Below, piece by piece: positions 9,168 through 15,486 of a DNA stretch of 64,000 nt. The stretch is from assembly GCF_003334385.1 (NCBI RefSeq), contig NZ_QOWN01000003.1; one strand, 5' to 3'. How positions within the stretch are numbered: the first letter of the stretch is position 1; every line of letters begins with the position of its first letter. The position numbers and the translations under genes were made by a program. A model generated the notes under the pieces. The model did no database searches and was not told the origin of the DNA. It saw nothing but the letters and a program-made list of their open reading frames with translations. This stretch comes from Escherichia coli. Its GTDB lineage: Bacteria > Pseudomonadota > Gammaproteobacteria > Enterobacterales > Enterobacteriaceae.

Positions 9168-10702
9168 TAGCGGAGTCCTTGTCTGACATAACCTACCCAT
9201 TTTGCGACTAACGCGGTCAGGGCAAAAATAATAAGCGGTAATAGCAGTTGCCATAAAGCCTGGGCGGCGAGAATACCGTTGCTGCCGCCGCTGCTTAATG
9301 CCACCGCCTCAGTGGTGAGCGTCGGAAAACGCCCCGCGCCCAGCCACAGCGTTGGCATATACTGCGCAATACCGACTGCAAATCCCACCGCGAAGGCAAT
9401 CAGCACAGGGCGCAACATGAGTGGGCATTTCACGTAAAAGAAGATTTTGGCCCGCGACCAGCCCAGTGTTTGCGCAATCAAAATTAACCGTGAATCAATG
9501 CGCTGCCAGGCGGGTTGCAGGATAAACAGCATCCACGGCATCACCCACAGCAGATGCCCCCAGACCACCGCCGTCCAGCTTCCATCCAGTTTCAGCCATA
9601 GCGCCAGCGTGTACTGGCCCGCCACCAGTGGCAGAGCAGGTAATAAAATGGGCAACCATAGCCACAACTGGCGACGCTGTGGCCCCCATTCCAGCCACAG
9701 CAGTAACAGGAGCAAAGCGATGAATGTCGCCACCAGCCCCATTGTCAGGCTGTTGATGAGCGCTTCACTATTGATCGTCGACTGATCCGCGAGGATCGCC
9801 AGCAGAACCACACACAGCACACCGGTTAAGGGTAAAAAAATCGCCAGCGTATTGCCCGGCAATAAAGGCGTGGCAGGCTTGCGAACGCCATCTACGCGGG
9901 GAATAGTGCGCCGCCAGCTGCGCCATAGCAGATAGCTCAGCAAAACGTAGGCGGCGAGTAACAGCATCAACAGCAGGCTGGCAAGCGCGCCTTTTGTTTG
10001 TTGGTCAATGTCGCCCTGGGTTAACCACTGCCAGCTAATTACCGCCAGCGTCGGGGGATTACCTGGCCCGAGAATAATTGCCACATCCACGACCGACAGC
10101 GACCAGGCAACAATCGCCAGCATCGCCATTGCCAGCGCAGGCGCGACGGAGGGCAACAGCAGCCAGTTCAGGCATTGCCAGCGGCTGTAGCCCAGCGAAT
10201 CCAGCACAATGACCTGCTGCAACAGCCATTTTTCGCTCAATACTGCTGCTAAGATCCACAGCAGAAATGCGCTTTCTTTCACTGCAAGGGTGAGGCCCAG
10301 ACCGATGCCAAATCGGTCCATTGGCGGAGTGAAATACGGGAAATAGTCATAAAGCAGCCCTCCGTCAGCAAAGAGCAGAAGGGCGCTGGTGGCAAAAGCC
10401 ACATGGGGAATGGCGAGCAGCCACGGCAGACGGGCGCACATACGCTGCCATTTCGGCCCAGGCCACAGCGCCACAATCACCAGCAGGGCAATCAACAATG
10501 CCCCGACCGCCGCGATGGTTGTCGACACCAGCGTTGCCAGTAATGCCTGCGGTAACTGTGGATCGGCAAATAACGCCTGCCAGTGTGTCAACGACAAAGC
10601 AGGCGATATCAGCGTGAGAGCTGCCGGGATCAGCGGTGCATAAATCACCGCCACCATCGCCCACAGCAAAAAGATTAATGCGTACCGTAACGGTGTAGCC
10701 AT
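9167..10702 (-). CDS. ynjC: ABC transporter permease (two fused transmembrane domains)
   Basis: ORF 9167..10726; very hydrophobic ~511-519 aa protein; start codon uncertain (10726 or 10702); overlaps the 3' end of ynjB. Confidence 0.88.
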   Translation of the reverse strand: MATPLRYALIFLLWAMVAVIYAPLIPAALTLISPALSLTHWQALFADPQLPQALLATLVSTTIAAVGALLIALLVIVALWPGPKWQRMCARLPWLLAIPHVAFATSALLLFADGGLLYDYFPYFTPPMDRFGIGLGLTLAVKESAFLLWILAAVLSEKWLLQQVIVLDSLGYSRWQCLNWLLLPSVAPALAMAMLAIVAWSLSVVDVAIILGPGNPPTLAVISWQWLTQGDIDQQTKGALASLLLMLLLAAYVLLSYLLWRSWRRTIPRVDGVRKPATPLLPGNTLAIFLPLTGVLCVVLLAILADQSTINSEALINSLTMGLVATFIALLLLLLWLEWGPQRRQLWLWLPILLPALPLVAGQYTLALWLKLDGSWTAVVWGHLLWVMPWMLFILQPAWQRIDSRLILIAQTLGWSRAKIFFYVKCPLMLRPVLIAFAVGFAVGIAQYMPTLWLGAGRFPTLTTEAVALSSGGSNGILAAQALWQLLLPLIIFALTALVAKWVGYVRQGLR

Positions 10703-11844
10703 TCTTGTTCCAGCGCATTTACCCAACCTGCGTGCGGTTCAGCCAGTACCGGCGGCAGATCCTGCGGCATTCTTGATTGCAATGATTCGCGCTGCCCGTC
10801 AGGCAGTTTTTGCGGATCGAGAACAGAAGGATCGCCCCAGACAGCGGGATCTGCTTTACGCAGTTGCGCATCGGGTGAGAGCAGGAAATTGGCAACTACC
10901 TTCGCCGCAGCACTGGCATTCGCGTTGGCAGGAATGGTGACGAAATGCACGTTGCCAATCATCCCCTCGCGAAAGCCAAAACTGTAACTGCTTGCAGGCA
11001 AATCGCCGCTGGCGATTTTTTGCTGCGCATGCGCGGGGTTAAAGGTCAGCGACAGGCGCAATGTGCCGGCTTTCAGCAGAGCATCCATCCGCGCGGGTGA
11101 AGGCGGGAAATCCTTTCCTTCGCGCCACAAATACGGATGCAGCACATCAAGATATTGCCACAAGGGAGCAGTGACACGGGCGAAAGTCGCATCGTCCGGC
11201 GCTTCTTTTAATGCGGCGGGATCGGGCGTCAGCATAATCAGCAACTGTTCAAGAAACGCCGTGCCGGTAAAGTCCGGTGGGCGCGGATAGGTAACCGTGC
11301 CGGGATTGGCTTTAGCAAACTCCAGTAAGGCTTGCGGCGTTTGTGGTGGCTGTGGCGTAACATCGCGGCGGGCGATAAACGTCAGTTGTGCGCCGCCCCA
11401 GGGCGATTCCGCACCTTGTGTCGGCACAGAAAAATCTTCCCGCACCGGCAGCTGTGTGTCGACATAGCGCCAGTTGGGCAGAGTCTCCGCCCAGCCCGTT
11501 TGTAATAAATTGGCCTCTTTTAAGGTGCGGAAGTTTTCGCCGTTCACCCAGAGCAGATCCACCGAGCCGCCCGTTTTACGTCCGGCTGCGGCTTCGGTCT
11601 GAATGCGCTTCACCGCGTCTGCGGCATCCGCCAGACGGACAATCTTCAGGTTTATAGCGTAATGGGTTTTCATCTCGCCGCTCACCCAGTCGAGATAGCG
11701 GTTAATTGCGGTATCGCCGCCCCAGGCGTTAAACCAGACGGTTTGCCCTTTGGCCTCATTTTTAATTTCTTGCCAGTCACTGGCATGTGTTGCCAGAGAA
11801 AACAGCGATAACAATCCCAGCAACCACCCACAATGGCGCATCAT
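10675..11844 (-). CDS. ynjB: ABC transporter periplasmic substrate-binding protein (thiamine/iron-type SBP fold)
   Basis: 389-aa ORF with N-terminal signal peptide MMRHCGWLLGLLSLFSLATHA; start may be the second Met. Confidence 0.88.
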   Translation of the reverse strand: MMRHCGWLLGLLSLFSLATHASDWQEIKNEAKGQTVWFNAWGGDTAINRYLDWVSGEMKTHYAINLKIVRLADAADAVKRIQTEAAAGRKTGGSVDLLWVNGENFRTLKEANLLQTGWAETLPNWRYVDTQLPVREDFSVPTQGAESPWGGAQLTFIARRDVTPQPPQTPQALLEFAKANPGTVTYPRPPDFTGTAFLEQLLIMLTPDPAALKEAPDDATFARVTAPLWQYLDVLHPYLWREGKDFPPSPARMDALLKAGTLRLSLTFNPAHAQQKIASGDLPASSYSFGFREGMIGNVHFVTIPANANASAAAKVVANFLLSPDAQLRKADPAVWGDPSVLDPQKLPDGQRESLQSRMPQDLPPVLAEPHAGWVNALEQEWLHRYGTH

Positions 11845-11850
11845 CTCTCC

Positions 11851-12399
11851 TTAAGAACGTTTTTCAGGAATACGGCACAGCCCCTGAGCGGGAATGTCCA
11901 TGGCAGAATTAAAACGGGCTGACAGATTTTGCAGGCCGATCAATGCCGTCAGTTCGGTGAGCGCCTGAGCGTCAAAATGCGCAGCCAGTCGGGTACGCAG
12001 GGCATCATCGACCGTTGGCGGCGTTACGCTTGCGGCTTCGGCGTACTCCAGCGCCAGCCGTTCTTCATCGCTAAAGAGCGGGCTTTGCCGCCAGTCAGCC
12101 ACTGCCAGCAGTTTATCGCTGCTGCCGGTGCGCTCGGCGACTTTCATACTGGTGATATCCACACAAAACTCACACAGGCACATTTGCGCAATGCGCGCGC
12201 TGACAAGCGATCGTACTACCGGATCGAGCGGTGAGCGTTTGCGCTCCAGCCAGCCAACAAACATCGACACCAGATAAAAGATAAACGGGATCCGCCCCCA
12301 CCAGCGAATGGGGCTTAGCACCTCGCCGTAATGGCGACGATGCAGCCACGCCTGTGGACGTAAAATTAAAGGAATTTTGCTAAGCGGCGGTAAACCCAT
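11851..12399 (-). CDS. ynjA: AhpD/carboxymuconolactone-decarboxylase-like protein
   Basis: 182-aa ORF, family assignment from translation (…ARIAQMCLCEFCVDITSMK…); 7-bp gap to ynjB. Confidence 0.85.
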   Translation of the reverse strand: MGLPPLSKIPLILRPQAWLHRRHYGEVLSPIRWWGRIPFIFYLVSMFVGWLERKRSPLDPVVRSLVSARIAQMCLCEFCVDITSMKVAERTGSSDKLLAVADWRQSPLFSDEERLALEYAEAASVTPPTVDDALRTRLAAHFDAQALTELTALIGLQNLSARFNSAMDIPAQGLCRIPEKRS

Positions 12400-13106
12400 C
12401 AGGCATTCCTCTTCTGGCGTTCAAGCCATATTTTCTTCGCCATAAAAATCACCACGGTCAGGGCAAACAGAATAAACAGTCCGGTGACAAACCAGAAAGT
12501 ACCGCCTGTTAACATGCTGCCCGCCCAGGAATAAACAATAGTTGCCGGTAACTGACCAAGCCCGGTGGCGATAAAAAACGAGCGAAAACGTATTGAAGTC
12601 AAACCGGCAGCATAGCTGATTGGATCGAAAGGGACAAAAGGCAATAACCGACAGACCAGAATGGTGTGTTTGCCGTAGCGAGTGAAAAAGCCGTCCATAC
12701 TGTCAAGCACGGTTTTGCCGGTTAATTTTTCCACCACTTCGCGGCCCATCACTCTGGCGATAAAAAAGCACAGCGCCGCGCCGGCCATCGAACTGGTCCA
12801 CGACAGCAAGCCGCCCCAGAACGCGCCAAACAGCGACGCATTGGCAAAGGTGATCAAAAACGCAGGTAGCGGTGCAGCAATGGCCTGCAAAATCATCAAC
12901 AAGAACGAGACAACTGCCGCCAGTGCGCCGTAAGACTGAATAAAGCGTTCTATACCCTGTTGGTCCACGGCGGCAAACGCCGCAACGCTGCGATTGATAA
13001 ACTCATGGACGCCGGGAAGCAGCGCCCATGCCAGCAGCATAGCGAACAACAGGATGATGAGGGTTATACGGTAGTACCAGATTTTTCGCGATTGCATCAT
13101 CATCAT
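12399..13106 (-). CDS. ydjZ: DedA/TVP38 family inner-membrane protein
   Basis: 235-aa hydrophobic ORF with DedA-type sequence; its stop overlaps the ynjA start. Confidence 0.88.
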   Translation of the reverse strand: MMMMQSRKIWYYRITLIILLFAMLLAWALLPGVHEFINRSVAAFAAVDQQGIERFIQSYGALAAVVSFLLMILQAIAAPLPAFLITFANASLFGAFWGGLLSWTSSMAGAALCFFIARVMGREVVEKLTGKTVLDSMDGFFTRYGKHTILVCRLLPFVPFDPISYAAGLTSIRFRSFFIATGLGQLPATIVYSWAGSMLTGGTFWFVTGLFILFALTVVIFMAKKIWLERQKRNA

Positions 13107-13120
13107 CCTTTATCCTGGCT

Positions 13121-13798
13121 TTATTCGGCGATTTTAAAGGTAACCGTTGCCAGCGTGTTATCCGCCGGGAGAACTGAGGCATTGCCTTTGAATTTAACTT
13201 CACCACGTTTTTCAACCGCACCATAAGTGTATGTTGCATTGCTGACGATGCCGACCGGGCAGCTATCCAGACACACCAGGCAACCCGTTTTCTTCTCTTC
13301 TGCTGCCGTTAAATTACCGCCAAAGCGCATGTCCAGTTTCTTGCCATTACTGTCAACAATCACTTCATCGAAGGAATACGCTTTTGCCGCCCCTTGCCAG
13401 TTGACCGAAATATCCAGTTTGCTGCCTGTGACATGAGTCGTTTCTTTATTATCCATCGTCATGTTTTCGCCCGGCGTACCACCTGCCTCTTTCAGGGCTT
13501 CATAAAATGCTTTCGGGGTCGCATAACCCATAAACAGCGATTTATGTCCGTTGGAGCCATCTTTAAACACAATACCGTGACGAGTGTCGTCGGTGAGGAA
13601 ACGACCATTAATTTGCACCAGCATGGTTACCGTATGGTTATTGGCATCGACACGCAGCGGTTGGCTGTTCGAAAGTCCGTCGTATTCCACTTTTGCCGCC
13701 GCATTCTCTTGTTGATCGCAGCCGCTAAGCCCAGCAACAGCCAGTAAACAGAGTGCAGCCAGTCCTTTTTTCCATGACACTGAATAATGTTGCAACAT
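13121..13798 (-). CDS. ydjY: Lipoprotein of unknown function (Cys-containing, ferredoxin-like motif remnant)
   Basis: ORF 13121..13960; probable start MLQHYSVSWKKGLAALCLLAVAGLSGC (lipobox LSGC); C-terminal CLVCLDSCP motif. Confidence 0.8.
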   Translation of the reverse strand: MLQHYSVSWKKGLAALCLLAVAGLSGCDQQENAAAKVEYDGLSNSQPLRVDANNHTVTMLVQINGRFLTDDTRHGIVFKDGSNGHKSLFMGYATPKAFYEALKEAGGTPGENMTMDNKETTHVTGSKLDISVNWQGAAKAYSFDEVIVDSNGKKLDMRFGGNLTAAEEKKTGCLVCLDSCPVGIVSNATYTYGAVEKRGEVKFKGNASVLPADNTLATVTFKIAE

Positions 13799-13802
13799 CG
13801 TT

Positions 13803-14513
13803 CTATCCTTCATTTTTTGGGTGAGTAAGTGGGCTGCGGCGCGAAGCAGACAGATCCACATGTTTGTGTCGGGCGTAGAGTTTTGCGAGCTGGACGAGAA
13901 TAAACAGCGCCAGGCCCGCCAGACAGAGTTGTAAAATAAAGCGCAGCGTAATGCCTTCATTGGCGAGATCGCTTGCCATCACGGTATAAATAACAATACC
14001 GGGTAGGGTCGTGAGTGCCGAAATAAGGGTATAAGGCCAGAAGGCGATTGTGGTTAATCCGTAAGCGTAATTTTGAATATTGTAAGGAAACAACGGGATT
14101 AAGCGGGTCAGAATAAGAAAATCAATACCGTTACGCGCAATGCCTTTTTCAATGGCCTGGAAGGTATTGCTATGGCCAACGTATTTCAGCAGTAAATCAC
14201 GTCCCAGCCAGCGCGCCAGCAGGAATGAGCACGAGGAGGCCAGCGTGGCGGCAATTAATGAGAGTAGTGTCCCTAAGAGCGGGCCAAAAACTATTCCTCC
14301 CGCGATCACCAGTATGCTTCCTGGTAACAGCAAGAGGGTGGCAATGATGAATAACAGAATATAGAGGCTATAGCCGAAAAATCCGCTCTGGCGGATGAGT
14401 GTCTGTAAGTGGGGTAAATCGGTGAGCAGATCGAATAAACCGAAAGCGTGGATAGCGTAAATGACCAGCGCAAAAATAAGACAGGCAAAAAGAAATTTAC
14501 GCTCAGCGTTCAT
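13803..14513 (-). CDS. ydjX: DedA/TVP38 family inner-membrane protein
   Basis: ORF 13803..14561; probable start MNAERKFLFACLIFALV…; second DedA paralogue and first gene of the cluster. Confidence 0.85.
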   Translation of the reverse strand: MNAERKFLFACLIFALVIYAIHAFGLFDLLTDLPHLQTLIRQSGFFGYSLYILLFIIATLLLLPGSILVIAGGIVFGPLLGTLLSLIAATLASSCSFLLARWLGRDLLLKYVGHSNTFQAIEKGIARNGIDFLILTRLIPLFPYNIQNYAYGLTTIAFWPYTLISALTTLPGIVIYTVMASDLANEGITLRFILQLCLAGLALFILVQLAKLYARHKHVDLSASRRSPLTHPKNEG

Positions 14514-14679
14514 CGTGGAGTTTCCTATATCAAACTTGATAATAGAGAAGTGGTCAGACAACTAAAAACGCAGAGACGGTATAACAAAGGACGGCAGGCA
14601 ACAAATCATTACTGACAGTTTGTTGATTTTTCTCAAGGTTAATTCTCCTGACCCAGTTTGAGCCAGGAGAGCTGCTAAA

Positions 14680-15486
14680 TTAGCGGCGGAAGGTCGCCCA
14701 GACGGGGGCGTGATCGGACGGTTTTTCCATGCTGCGGATTTCATAGTCGATGCCGGTTTCTACGCAACATTCTGCCAGCGGTTGGCTGGCGAGCAGCAGG
14801 TCGATGCGCAGACCACGGTTATCGTCAAAACCTTTTGAGCGGTAATCAAACCATGAGAAACGATCTGCTGTTTGCGGATTCGCATGGCGGAAGGTATCGA
14901 CCAACCCCCAGCTCATCAGCCTGTCCATCCATTCGCGCTCTTCCGGCAGGAAAGAGCATTTACCGGTACGCAGCCAGCGCTTACGGTTTTCTTCGCCAAT
15001 GCCGATATCCAGATCTGTAGGGCTGATATTCATATCGCCCATAATCAGTACCGGATTATCACGTTTGAGTTCGGTTTCCAGGTAGTTTTGCAGATTCTGA
15101 TAAAACTGCGCTTTTGCCGGGAATTTTATCGGATGGTCGCGGCTTTCACCCTGCGGGAAGTAACCGTTGATCACGGTGACATTACCCAGCAGTGAGGGGA
15201 TTTCCGCCATAATAATCCGCCGCTGCGCCTCTTCGTCGTCACCGGGAAAGCCGCGACGCACGGCAATCGGCGTCTCTTTGGTCAGCAGCGCCACGCCATA
15301 ATGGCCTTTCTGCCCGTGATAAAACACGTTGTAGCCGAGCTTCGCCACCTCTTCGAGCGGAAACATATCGTCATGAACTTTTGTCTCCTGCAGGCCAATC
15401 ACATCCGGTTGGTGCTTTTCGACGATGGCTTCAAGCTGGTGAGGTCTGGCGCGCAGGCCGTTGATATTAAAAGAGACAAATTTCAT
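14680..15486 (-). CDS. xthA: Exodeoxyribonuclease III (AP endonuclease VI)
   Basis: ORF 14680..15498; [36 protein letters not shown]… matches the ExoIII/APE1 family. Confidence 0.96.

Follow-up and report, generated by a model that had tools for sequence, protein, structure and literature searches.

What does the lipoprotein YdjY of Escherichia coli do, and what does it mean that its gene lies between the genes of two DedA-family membrane proteins? The question is raised by a 64,000-nucleotide stretch of E. coli DNA (contig NZ_QOWN01000003.1, assembly GCF_003334385.1; hereafter the window) in which ydjY is encoded on the minus strand. A sequence-only reading of the gene had pointed to a lipobox, LSGC, and to a cysteine motif, CLVCLDSCP, likened to a degenerate ferredoxin motif and a possible partial iron–sulfur or metal site, and had called the position between two DedA paralogues unusual. 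The gene itself, the lipoprotein nature of its product (annotated in RefSeq as 'lipoprotein YdjY') and its family are already known, and an operon-level hint of a role in selenium and molybdenum use has been published (PMC7888660).

YdjY is very probably the extracytoplasmic thiol-site partner of a DedA protein of the YdjZ type, as conservation, synteny and gene fusions indicate. The reading we prefer for its role, with a probability of roughly 0.4, is a full selenium relay from YdjY through YdjZ to SelD, operating in the manner of MerP and MerT. The anatomy, conservation, synteny and fusions are direct observations and the co-regulation is taken from published work; the cargo, its direction and the thiol relay we infer. 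New here are the finding that the ferredoxin label is wrong, the His-Cys3 signature, the pairing with a cysteine-bearing YdjZ-type DedA protein and a small membrane protein, the rhodanese fusions, and the recurrent neighborhood of SelD, SelA, SelB and YedF.

The conserved site of YdjY

The features of the gene, all on the minus strand, are as follows.

13121..13798, minus: ydjY coding sequence, 225 amino acids plus stop, a YdjY-domain lipoprotein as translated from the sequence
13718..13798, minus: predicted Sec-type lipoprotein signal peptide, with lipobox L24-S25-G26-C27 at 13718..13729 and Asp28 next
13577..13579, minus: codon of His74, the probable fourth residue of the cysteine site
13256..13282, minus: signature C173-L-V-C176-L-D178-S179-C180-P181, matched to the raw sequence

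The five cysteines of YdjY are residue 17 in the signal peptide, residue 27 in the lipobox, and residues 173, 176 and 180 in CLVCLDSCP (residues 173–181), and both the lipobox and the motif are present as the sequence-only reading had described them. The N-terminus consists of K10-K11, a hydrophobic stretch and L-S-G-C27, and fits the lipobox pattern [LVI][ASTVI][GAS]C; lipidation itself is predicted. Enterobacterial homologues have CDQ or CEQ after the lipobox. Aspartate at the +2 position after the lipidated cysteine is the classical inner-membrane retention signal, so the YdjY site would lie on the inner membrane, facing the periplasm. An alternative longer open reading frame (ORF) of ydjY reaches 13960 and overlaps ydjX.

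YdjY matches the NCBIfam model NF040466 (ydjY_domain) with 146.2 bits (cutoff 50) over residues 49–223, and all listed homologues carry the precomputed Pfam assignment PF27149. Every residue of the family signature, H74 … F-G-G-N … G-C-x2-C-x2-S-C, is present in the window protein. The sequence-only reading had proposed an alignment to see which cysteines are conserved; the three in the motif are, being kept in 98–100 of 104 close full-length homologues (lipobox Cys27 in 83), which marks the motif as functionally important. Among 108 representatives (50%-identity clusters, 30–60% identical to YdjY) C173 is retained in 100, C176 in 105 and C180 in 104, together with H74 (103), S179 (102), G172 (106), F159 (101), G161 (106) and N162 (100). 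The sole invariant columns of a more divergent alignment (A3; 74 sequences, mean column identity 23%) are H74, G161, G172, C176 and C180. A few of the 108 representatives have S, T, E or D in place of C173 but keep C176, C180 and H74. Residues 73 and 178 are reciprocal best mutual-information partners (1.275 versus a maximum of 0.608 in 2000 shuffles) and their pairings are chemically sensible (R-D 40, W-Y 11, H-Q 8, Y-Y/F 8), although shared ancestry inflates such scores and the covariation is suggestive only. It suggests that His74 and the cysteine loop may form a single site.

The family is small, with 313 clusters at E <= 1e-3 in an exhaustive search of 1.84 billion representatives. Genomes were scanned, one per species, with two exact peptide patterns taken from an alignment of the close subfamily (A1), to which the scan is confined, and 95 species carry it. 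They include Escherichia, Citrobacter, Sulfurospirillum, Campylobacter concisus and a spirochaete, the Firmicutes Peptostreptococcus, Finegoldia, Gemella, Facklamia, Catonella, Clostridium, Thermincola and Bacillus benzoevorans, and deltaproteobacteria of Syntrophus, Desulfarculus and Syntrophobacter type. The E. coli and Firmicute proteins share 50–60% identity, which with the patchy distribution indicates horizontal transfer of the module.

YdjY and ferredoxins

The likeness to ferredoxins that the sequence-only reading had noted stands at the level of a motif of about 14 residues, the C-x2-C-x3-C-P of YdjY aligning with the last three cysteines of the CxxCxxCxxxCP of 4Fe-4S ferredoxins. YdjY is not, however, a degenerate ferredoxin: its own family signature, G-C-x2-C-x2-S-C with His74, is intact. 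The position of the first ferredoxin cysteine is K or N throughout the family and the second ferredoxin motif is absent. All Pfam Fer4 models fall short of significance (Fer4_3, E = 0.089; Fer4_21, E = 0.12; Fer4, E = 0.25) and cover ~14 residues (164/171–184), and a sequence search of the PDB gave matches only at E ~0.3, with the motif aligned to CxxCxxCxxxCP of polyferredoxin-like subunits. A confident AlphaFold2 model, built with 45 homologues, is mostly beta (predicted local distance difference test score, pLDDT, 90; predicted template modeling score, pTM, 0.81). A Foldseek search of AFDB50 with this model returned family members only, and no ferredoxin was found in the fold searches with it. 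The predicted fold is thus not ferredoxin-like and is without a characterized relative. Membership in the ferredoxins was rejected on these sub-threshold, motif-only matches and fold searches, and the automatic label '4Fe-4S ferredoxin-type domain' on the YdjY family is misleading and due for correction.

The same observations bear on the view that the motif, derived from a ferredoxin, holds an iron–sulfur cluster or other redox metal center and that YdjY serves in periplasmic electron transfer. The motif similarity and weak Fer4 matches (E ~0.1–0.3) are in keeping with this, Cys3-His ligation of [4Fe-4S] clusters occurs in other proteins, and small ferredoxins and Fer4/CCG proteins are among the neighbors of YdjY; the iron–sulfur proteins encoded nearby, however, either have no signal peptide or are joined to VTT proteins on the cytoplasmic side. 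YdjY is predicted to be exported as an unfolded chain: a hydrophobic N-terminus is found in 176 of the 189 full-length family members, a lipobox in 116 and a twin-arginine (RR) motif in four, the last being absent from the E. coli protein and from 185 members in all. We know of no route by which a chain exported unfolded could acquire an iron–sulfur cluster, and the Sec/lipoprotein signals therefore argue against a cluster inserted in the cytoplasm. Just one of the four RR motifs resembles a genuine twin-arginine translocation (Tat) signal; it belongs to P0207 (275 amino acids), a distant member with a convincing …VSRRGFLAGMG… sequence, unlike the rest of the family, that might carry a cofactor, and its SRRGFL is in line with the iron–sulfur view.

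DedA partners and a small membrane protein

Three genes adjoin or follow ydjY in the same direction.

13803..14513, minus: ydjX, the second and more divergent DedA/VTT paralogue
12399..13106, minus: ydjZ, a YdjZ-type DedA/VTT (COG0398) membrane protein with Cys113 and Cys152, the conserved partner of YdjY
11851..12399, minus: ynjA, an AhpD/carboxymuconolactone-decarboxylase-like protein with a C-x-C-E-F-C motif

The gaps are 4 nt between ydjX and ydjY and 14 nt between ydjY and ydjZ, and ydjZ overlaps ynjA, so that these genes form one operon, to which ynjB, ynjC and ynjD also belong. The region 12300..14700 was found by megablast in 5425 of 5426 complete E. coli genomes, with the annotated order xthA, ydjX, ydjY, ydjZ, ynjA. 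Insertion sequences are present at the region in two genomes (NZ_CP154887.1, NZ_CP110117.1), an ISVsa5 and an IS1B that splits ydjY, and truncated YdjY variants are numerous in Escherichia and Shigella (P0013, P0024 and P0027 among them); ydjY is therefore dispensable and has been repeatedly inactivated in some lineages.

YdjX and YdjZ are 26% identical (E = 4e-17) and both belong to the RefSeq TVP38/TMEM64 family, so the sequence-only reading was right to call them DedA paralogues. Homologous VTT neighbors of YdjY carry PF09335, and YdjZ serves in the DedA literature as the example of COG0398. Members of the COG0398 branch are reported to lack the acidic and basic residues that undecaprenyl-phosphate flippases have at the tips of their re-entrant loops, and to resemble eukaryotic lipid scramblases (bioRxiv 10.1101/2023.01.04.522824). 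The possibility that YdjX and YdjZ are UptA-type undecaprenyl-phosphate flippases (COG0586) was rejected, the matches to the UptA/DedA models being weak (36 bits for YdjZ and 27 for YdjX) and far under the equivalog cutoff of 250.

The two DedA types differ in how closely they follow YdjY. With E. coli YdjZ as reference, YdjZ-type proteins reach 220–270 bits in the majority of YdjY loci, across phyla, a conservation equal to that of YdjY itself, whereas YdjX-type proteins are looser (70–120 bits); loci with two VTT genes hold one of each. Among YdjY-linked proteins of the YdjZ type, Cys113 (GAALCFFIAR) is present in 62 of 62 and Cys152 (CRLLPF) in 57 of 62, in both cases beside family-invariant arginines. 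Both cysteines are absent from the YdjX type, which has A, M or S at position 113 and T, A or L at position 152. Deltaproteobacteria have a single VTT protein of the X-like kind, which carries HdrD-like Fer4/CCG domains as a fusion.

A third gene product accompanies the pair in most other bacteria, a membrane protein of ~126 amino acids with four helices and conserved G14, M33 and N112. It has no Pfam or NCBIfam match. The protein is free-standing in 30 loci (e.g. L004:8656-9051, L001:8649-9029, L003:8666-9130, L006:9097-9483) and in 36 precedes the VTT sequence within one fused protein (e.g. L036:10727-11914), an arrangement that accounts for the length of 395–410 residues in the Firmicute VTT proteins. 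On the sequence evidence it is a third core component of the YdjY module. E. coli lacks it and has the second DedA gene, ydjX, instead. YdjY is itself found in fusions: rhodanese–YdjY (P0153, P0150) and YdjY–rhodanese (P0186), with lipoprotein signals and the rhodanese active-site cysteine intact, as well as VTT–YdjY (P0198) and fatty-acid-hydroxylase–YdjY (P0234).

Gene neighborhoods across genomes

The ORFs of 87 loci, sorted into classes with iterated hidden Markov models, were compared over a 10 kb range in 48 dereplicated groups (80% YdjY identity). Single-linkage clustering of ORFs was dropped because fusion proteins merged the YdjY, VTT, small membrane and Fer4/CCG proteins. The classes found beside ydjY are as follows.

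VTT/DedA gene: 43 of 48 groups, within two ORFs in 33; some groups without one are truncated contigs
small membrane protein: 36 of 48
CCG protein: 15 of 48
rhodanese: 13 of 48
small ferredoxin: 13 of 48
ATP-binding cassette (ABC) permease: 13 of 48
TIGR04282/04283 glycosyltransferases, above cutoff: 12 of 48
SBP_bac_8 binding protein: 10 of 48
YedF-like protein: 8 of 48
choline-kinase-like APH protein: 8 of 48
CDP-alcohol transferase (YnjF homologues; including L006, L029, L034, L056 and L057): 7 of 48
radical S-adenosylmethionine (SAM) protein: 7 of 48
nucleoside-hydrolase-like protein: 7 of 48
ResA-like protein: 6 of 48
flippase-like LPG_synthase_TM protein: 6 of 48
CcdA: 5 of 48
C_GCAxxG_C_C protein: 5 of 48

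A place beside DedA genes, which had seemed unusual, is rather the rule (43 of the 48 groups), and the association to which the sequence-only reading drew attention is a meaningful one. The CCG neighbors have 'diclust_near_Sec' as their best NCBIfam model. The minimal unit, in Gemella, Finegoldia and Peptostreptococcus, consists of YdjY and a fusion of the small membrane protein with the VTT protein.

One distant locus (L006) reproduces nearly the whole E. coli gene set. It contains VTT, rhodanese–YdjY, small membrane protein, VTT, YedF (189 bits; cutoff 110) and a PF11823 selenium/sulfur carrier, and, divergently, an ABC transporter with SBP_bac_8, a CDP-alcohol transferase and a CCG protein. 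In E. coli these correspond to ydjX-ydjY-ydjZ, ynjBCD, ynjE and ynjF, of which the following lie further along the window.

10675..11844, minus: ynjB, ABC importer binding protein (NCBIfam match)
9167..10702, minus: ynjC, fused permease of the ABC importer (NCBIfam match)
8514..9167, minus: ynjD, ATPase of the ABC importer (NCBIfam match)
7140..8462, minus: ynjE, periplasmic three-domain rhodanese with a signal peptide visible in the sequence
6505..7131, plus: ynjF, membrane protein of the CDP-alcohol phosphatidyltransferase family, with matches to archaetidylinositol-phosphate synthase-like NCBIfam models

The longest ORF for ynjC starts from a TTG at 10726 and shares 52 nt with the end of ynjB; the start used here is the ATG at 10702, which gives 511 amino acids. 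Adjacent to YdjY genes solely in enterobacterial loci, ynjA encodes a candidate for the cytoplasmic thiol oxidoreductase of the operon; its product matches the model NF053654, 'YciW-related (seleno)protein', at 6e-29 but under the model cutoff.

Several further arrangements were observed. A MacB-type ABC exporter (FtsX/MacB_PCD permease and ATPase) and a DUF4418 membrane protein recur beside the module in several Firmicute lineages (L088:9648-11301, Gemella loci such as L059, and L024, L048, L051 and L054). In Sulfurospirillum (L004:433-7803 and L030) the genes for YdjY, the small membrane protein and VTT divergently adjoin a two-component system, beside which are a TtrA-like molybdopterin oxidoreductase (965 bits, under the TtrA cutoff) and NrfD and 4Fe-4S subunits. 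Distant family members have other architectures, such as the fatty-acid hydroxylase fusion, YdjY joined to three DUF5719 repeats, and YdjY domains in tandem (P0234, 478 amino acids; P0161, 645; P0122, 427), and distant loci (L089, L090, L092) have neighbors including NMO, acyl-CoA dehydrogenase, ARMT1-like and DUF169 proteins and no DedA gene.

Links to selenium

The fullest selenium context is that of Facklamia languida (L078), where the module forms part of one co-directional array. It runs from TIGR04282/04283 transferases, a PrdB-like gene, CcdA, a ResA-like thioredoxin and two VTT genes through a nucleoside-hydrolase-like gene, the small membrane protein, YdjY and a rhodanese to SelD (361 bits), a YedF C-terminal domain, SelB (373) and SelA (609). 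The PrdB/GrdB-like ORF (L078:4879-5601, plus strand) has an in-frame TGA (…LLSPG-U-YICHQ…) followed by 85 more codons in frame, and is probably a UxxC selenoprotein. The cluster of this ORF is shared with the B. benzoevorans locus L064.

SelD is encoded within 10 kb of YdjY in six loci of three lineages (L027, L078, L079, L083, L084, L085): directly after YdjY in a Syntrophaceae genome (L027, 365 bits), and also in two more deltaproteobacterial loci and two more Facklamia species. YedF is beside YdjY in nine loci, and the TusA/DsrE-type neighbors pass the cutoff of YedF, a model associated with selenium. A spot check of co-occurrence found SelD proteins in four Facklamia species that have YdjY, as well as in Gemella sp. 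GH3.

Two features of the window are relevant to the E. coli genes.

29..949, plus: selD, 5′-truncated at the window edge (NF002098 SelD, 539 bits; cutoff 299)
14623..14636, plus: FNR-like palindrome TTGATTTTTCTCAA, with one mismatch to TTGAT-N4-ATCAA and lying 110 nt upstream of the start codon (ATG) of ydjX

The selD gene is outside the ydjY operon, 12 kb from ydjY and 5.6 kb from ynjF; after it come topB (897..2915), ynjI (2920..4083), gdhA (4200..5543, minus) and nudG (6017..6424, minus). The palindrome fits the published direct activation of ydjXYZ-ynjABCD and ynjE by FNR, with an operon site at -60.5 (PMC3688515); the window holds five FNR-like matches against 3.06 expected, a count that alone is no better than chance. 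An independent-component analysis of transcriptomes assigns the operon, together with yedEF, yjiLM and ynjE, to a single anaerobic module, which the authors connect with the use of molybdenum and selenium (PMC7888660). The periplasmic YnjE shows no thiosulfate:glutathione sulfurtransferase activity when purified, and its physiological substrate is described as unclear (PMC10215317). A 2022 review states that no high-affinity selenium transporter has been identified in bacteria (PMC9312934).

A proposed thiol relay

In the selenium relay, YdjY would form the outside half of the module, lipid-anchored at the periplasmic face of the inner membrane and exposing a reactive site of His74, Cys173, Cys176 and Cys180, and a YdjZ-type DedA protein with membrane-embedded Cys113 and Cys152 would form the inside half. 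YdjX would assist in E. coli and the four-helix small membrane protein in most other bacteria. YdjY would first form a covalent bond with a thiophilic chalcogen. This would most likely be selenium, in the form of a selenotrisulfide or perselenide, with selenite or the periplasmic rhodanese YnjE as its source. Thiol exchange would then pass it from YdjY to Cys113 and Cys152 of YdjZ. On the inner side it would be taken over by thiol proteins of the cytoplasm, which in E. coli would be YnjA and elsewhere YedF, DUF3343 or HdrD-like CCG proteins, and be released by them for SelD. Reduction of the outer thiols would fall to CcdA and ResA where these are co-encoded. That YdjY, the YdjZ-type DedA protein and YdjX or the small membrane protein together constitute an unrecognized, widely transferred, high-affinity selenium importer working by covalent thiol relay is a tentative proposal, and on balance somewhat unlikely.

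A number of observations weigh against selenium as the cargo or against the generality of the module. In most of the dereplicated loci no gene dedicated to selenium lies within 10 kb, and the 12 kb between selD and ydjY in E. coli may be chance (~0.6% for one gene). The rhodanese, YedF/TusA/DsrE-like, CCG and thiol-disulfide oxidoreductase neighbors suit sulfur chemistry equally well, and YnjE is linked in the literature to molybdopterin sulfur transfer. Glycosyltransferases of families named by NCBI for 'arsenosugar biosynthesis' are encoded in 12 of the 48 loci, and these, with the kinase, CDP-alcohol transferase and flippase-like neighbors, hint at a lipid or glycoconjugate chemistry on which the relay model is silent. 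The Gemella and Finegoldia loci have housekeeping neighbors (argS, rpoE, rplS, spx, brnQ). Distant YdjY-domain proteins (33–41% identity) have no adjoining VTT genes; the contexts examined (P0243, P0182, P0159) either showed none or lay on contigs of insufficient length, and the claim of a module is therefore limited to the close subfamily. The literature searched contains no functional or experimental study of YdjY, selenium binding included.

Alternative explanations

The main rival, which we consider rather unlikely, keeps the same architecture and thiol relay but has sulfane sulfur as cargo (persulfide, polysulfide or thiosulfate-derived S0): YnjE would load YdjY, and entry through YdjZ would serve anaerobic synthesis of the molybdenum cofactor or iron–sulfur clusters. 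Rhodanese, the most frequent accessory gene and also fused to YdjY, speaks for it, as do the TusA/DsrE-type and HdrD/DsrK-like CCG proteins, which are classic sulfur-trafficking parts. YnjE is annotated as a molybdopterin-synthase sulfurtransferase, although the purified protein lacks the thiosulfate:glutathione activity noted above and its substrate is called unclear (PMC10215317). The Sulfurospirillum loci adjoin a TtrA-like enzyme of tetrathionate-reductase type, and relatives of YedE/YeeE reportedly include sulfur importers (PMC11582611). Selenium is favored over sulfur by the selenium-specific SelD, SelA and SelB genes that recur beside YdjY in three lineages and by the TusA/DsrE-type neighbors that pass the YedF cutoff; cells, moreover, seldom need a dedicated high-affinity route for sulfur.

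Unlikely, and less probable than a sulfur relay, is a place for YdjY at the outer face of a lipid or glycoconjugate pathway, where it would bind or modify a head group that might contain arsenic or selenium while the DedA proteins flip a lipid-linked intermediate made by the CDP-alcohol transferase, glycosyltransferases and kinase from an ABC-imported compound. The likeness of COG0398 proteins to eukaryotic lipid scramblases (bioRxiv 10.1101/2023.01.04.522824) is in its favor, and the enzymes required recur (CDP-OH_P_transf, TIGR04282/TIGR04283, APH, LPG_synthase_TM, nucleoside-hydrolase-like and radical SAM proteins and an SBP_bac_8-type ABC importer), yet the minimal units of Gemella, Finegoldia and Peptostreptococcus are without them and the invariant cysteines of YdjZ are left unexplained. 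Three clustered thiols are a typical ligand set for As(III). The radical SAM neighbor scores 75 bits against the ArsS cutoff of 300, however, and no recurrent ars-type cluster was seen among the neighbor clusters in a search that was not exhaustive. An arsenic reading, suggested by the names of TIGR04282/04283, was rejected on this radical SAM score and on the recurrence of selenium rather than ars genes.

Lower still in probability, and very unlikely, is a structural zinc site or structural disulfides, with YdjY serving the DedA proteins as a scaffold or regulator and having no catalytic role. Structural zinc is commonly bound by Cys3-His, and DsbA in the E. coli periplasm would tend to oxidize a CxxC pair. 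A merely structural site would not be expected to have conserved cysteines in its membrane partner; against it are also the co-encoded thiol-reducing CcdA and ResA-like thioredoxin, the rhodanese fusions, and the loss of C173 in a few members that retain C176, C180 and H74. The iron–sulfur electron-transfer protein considered above is the least probable of these explanations, disfavored on the grounds of sequence models, fold and export already given.

Comparison with known systems

The scheme proposed for YdjY and YdjZ is that of mercury uptake, in which a periplasmic cysteine protein (MerP) passes its cargo to inner-membrane cysteines (MerT) and on to a cytoplasmic enzyme of disulfide-oxidoreductase type (MerA). 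It fits the report that the most frequent fusion of COG0398 DedA proteins is to MerA-like pyridine-nucleotide disulfide oxidoreductases (bioRxiv 10.1101/2023.01.04.522824). There is no kinship of sequence or fold, MerP having a ferredoxin-like HMA fold with GMTCxxC and YdjY another fold with H...CxxCxxxC. The membrane partner is MerT in one case and a DedA/VTT protein in the other, and the cargo a toxic metal as against a proposed nutrient, selenium or sulfur, for which the relay is a proposal.

The YedE/YedF and YeeE/YeeD-type importers resemble the YdjY–YdjZ pair in their predicted import of a chalcogen with cysteine-based hand-off. The yedEF genes are co-regulated with ydjXYZ-ynjABCD (PMC7888660), YedF is beside YdjY in at least nine loci, and the selenium link of YedE/YedF, like that of YdjY, rests on comparative genomics (PMC5322559). 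YedE differs in being a Sulf_transp protein with ten transmembrane segments and no extracytoplasmic lipoprotein partner, and YdjY and YdjZ belong to unrelated families. The 2015 comparative selenium study makes no mention of COG0398, TVP38 or a lipoprotein (PMC5322559).

Like the binding proteins of ABC, tripartite ATP-independent periplasmic (TRAP) and tripartite tricarboxylate (TTT) transporters, YdjY is an extracytoplasmic protein of a kind often lipid-anchored and encoded beside, or sometimes fused with, a membrane transporter. It differs from them in that the membrane component is a DedA protein and that binding would be covalent through thiols and not in a non-covalent pocket. A partner protein for the DedA family is not described in the literature examined on DedA/COG0398.

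The active-site cysteine of rhodaneses can carry selenium as a perselenide, the known examples being cytoplasmic or in vitro. Here, periplasmic rhodaneses adjoin or are fused to YdjY, and a transfer from rhodanese to YdjY would be extracytoplasmic.

Implications

Bacteria need trace selenium to make selenocysteine, selenouridine and the selenium cofactor, and its uptake is an unsolved matter for which the YdjY–YdjZ module is a specific and testable candidate; E. coli K-12 is a convenient host, in which deletions, 75Se labeling and formate-dehydrogenase assays are routine. If the relay is correct, the module would also provide a protein of the DedA/TVP38 family with a non-lipid substrate and an obligate partner protein. 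It would bear as well on the COG0398 branch of the DedA/TVP38/TMEM41 superfamily, whose function is unknown (bioRxiv 10.1101/2023.01.04.522824). Even if the cargo were sulfur or a lipid head group, the strict pairing of a cysteine/histidine lipoprotein of new fold with a DedA protein that has cysteines of its own, the unannotated small membrane protein, fused to DedA in Firmicutes, and the error in the family label would stand as concrete leads.

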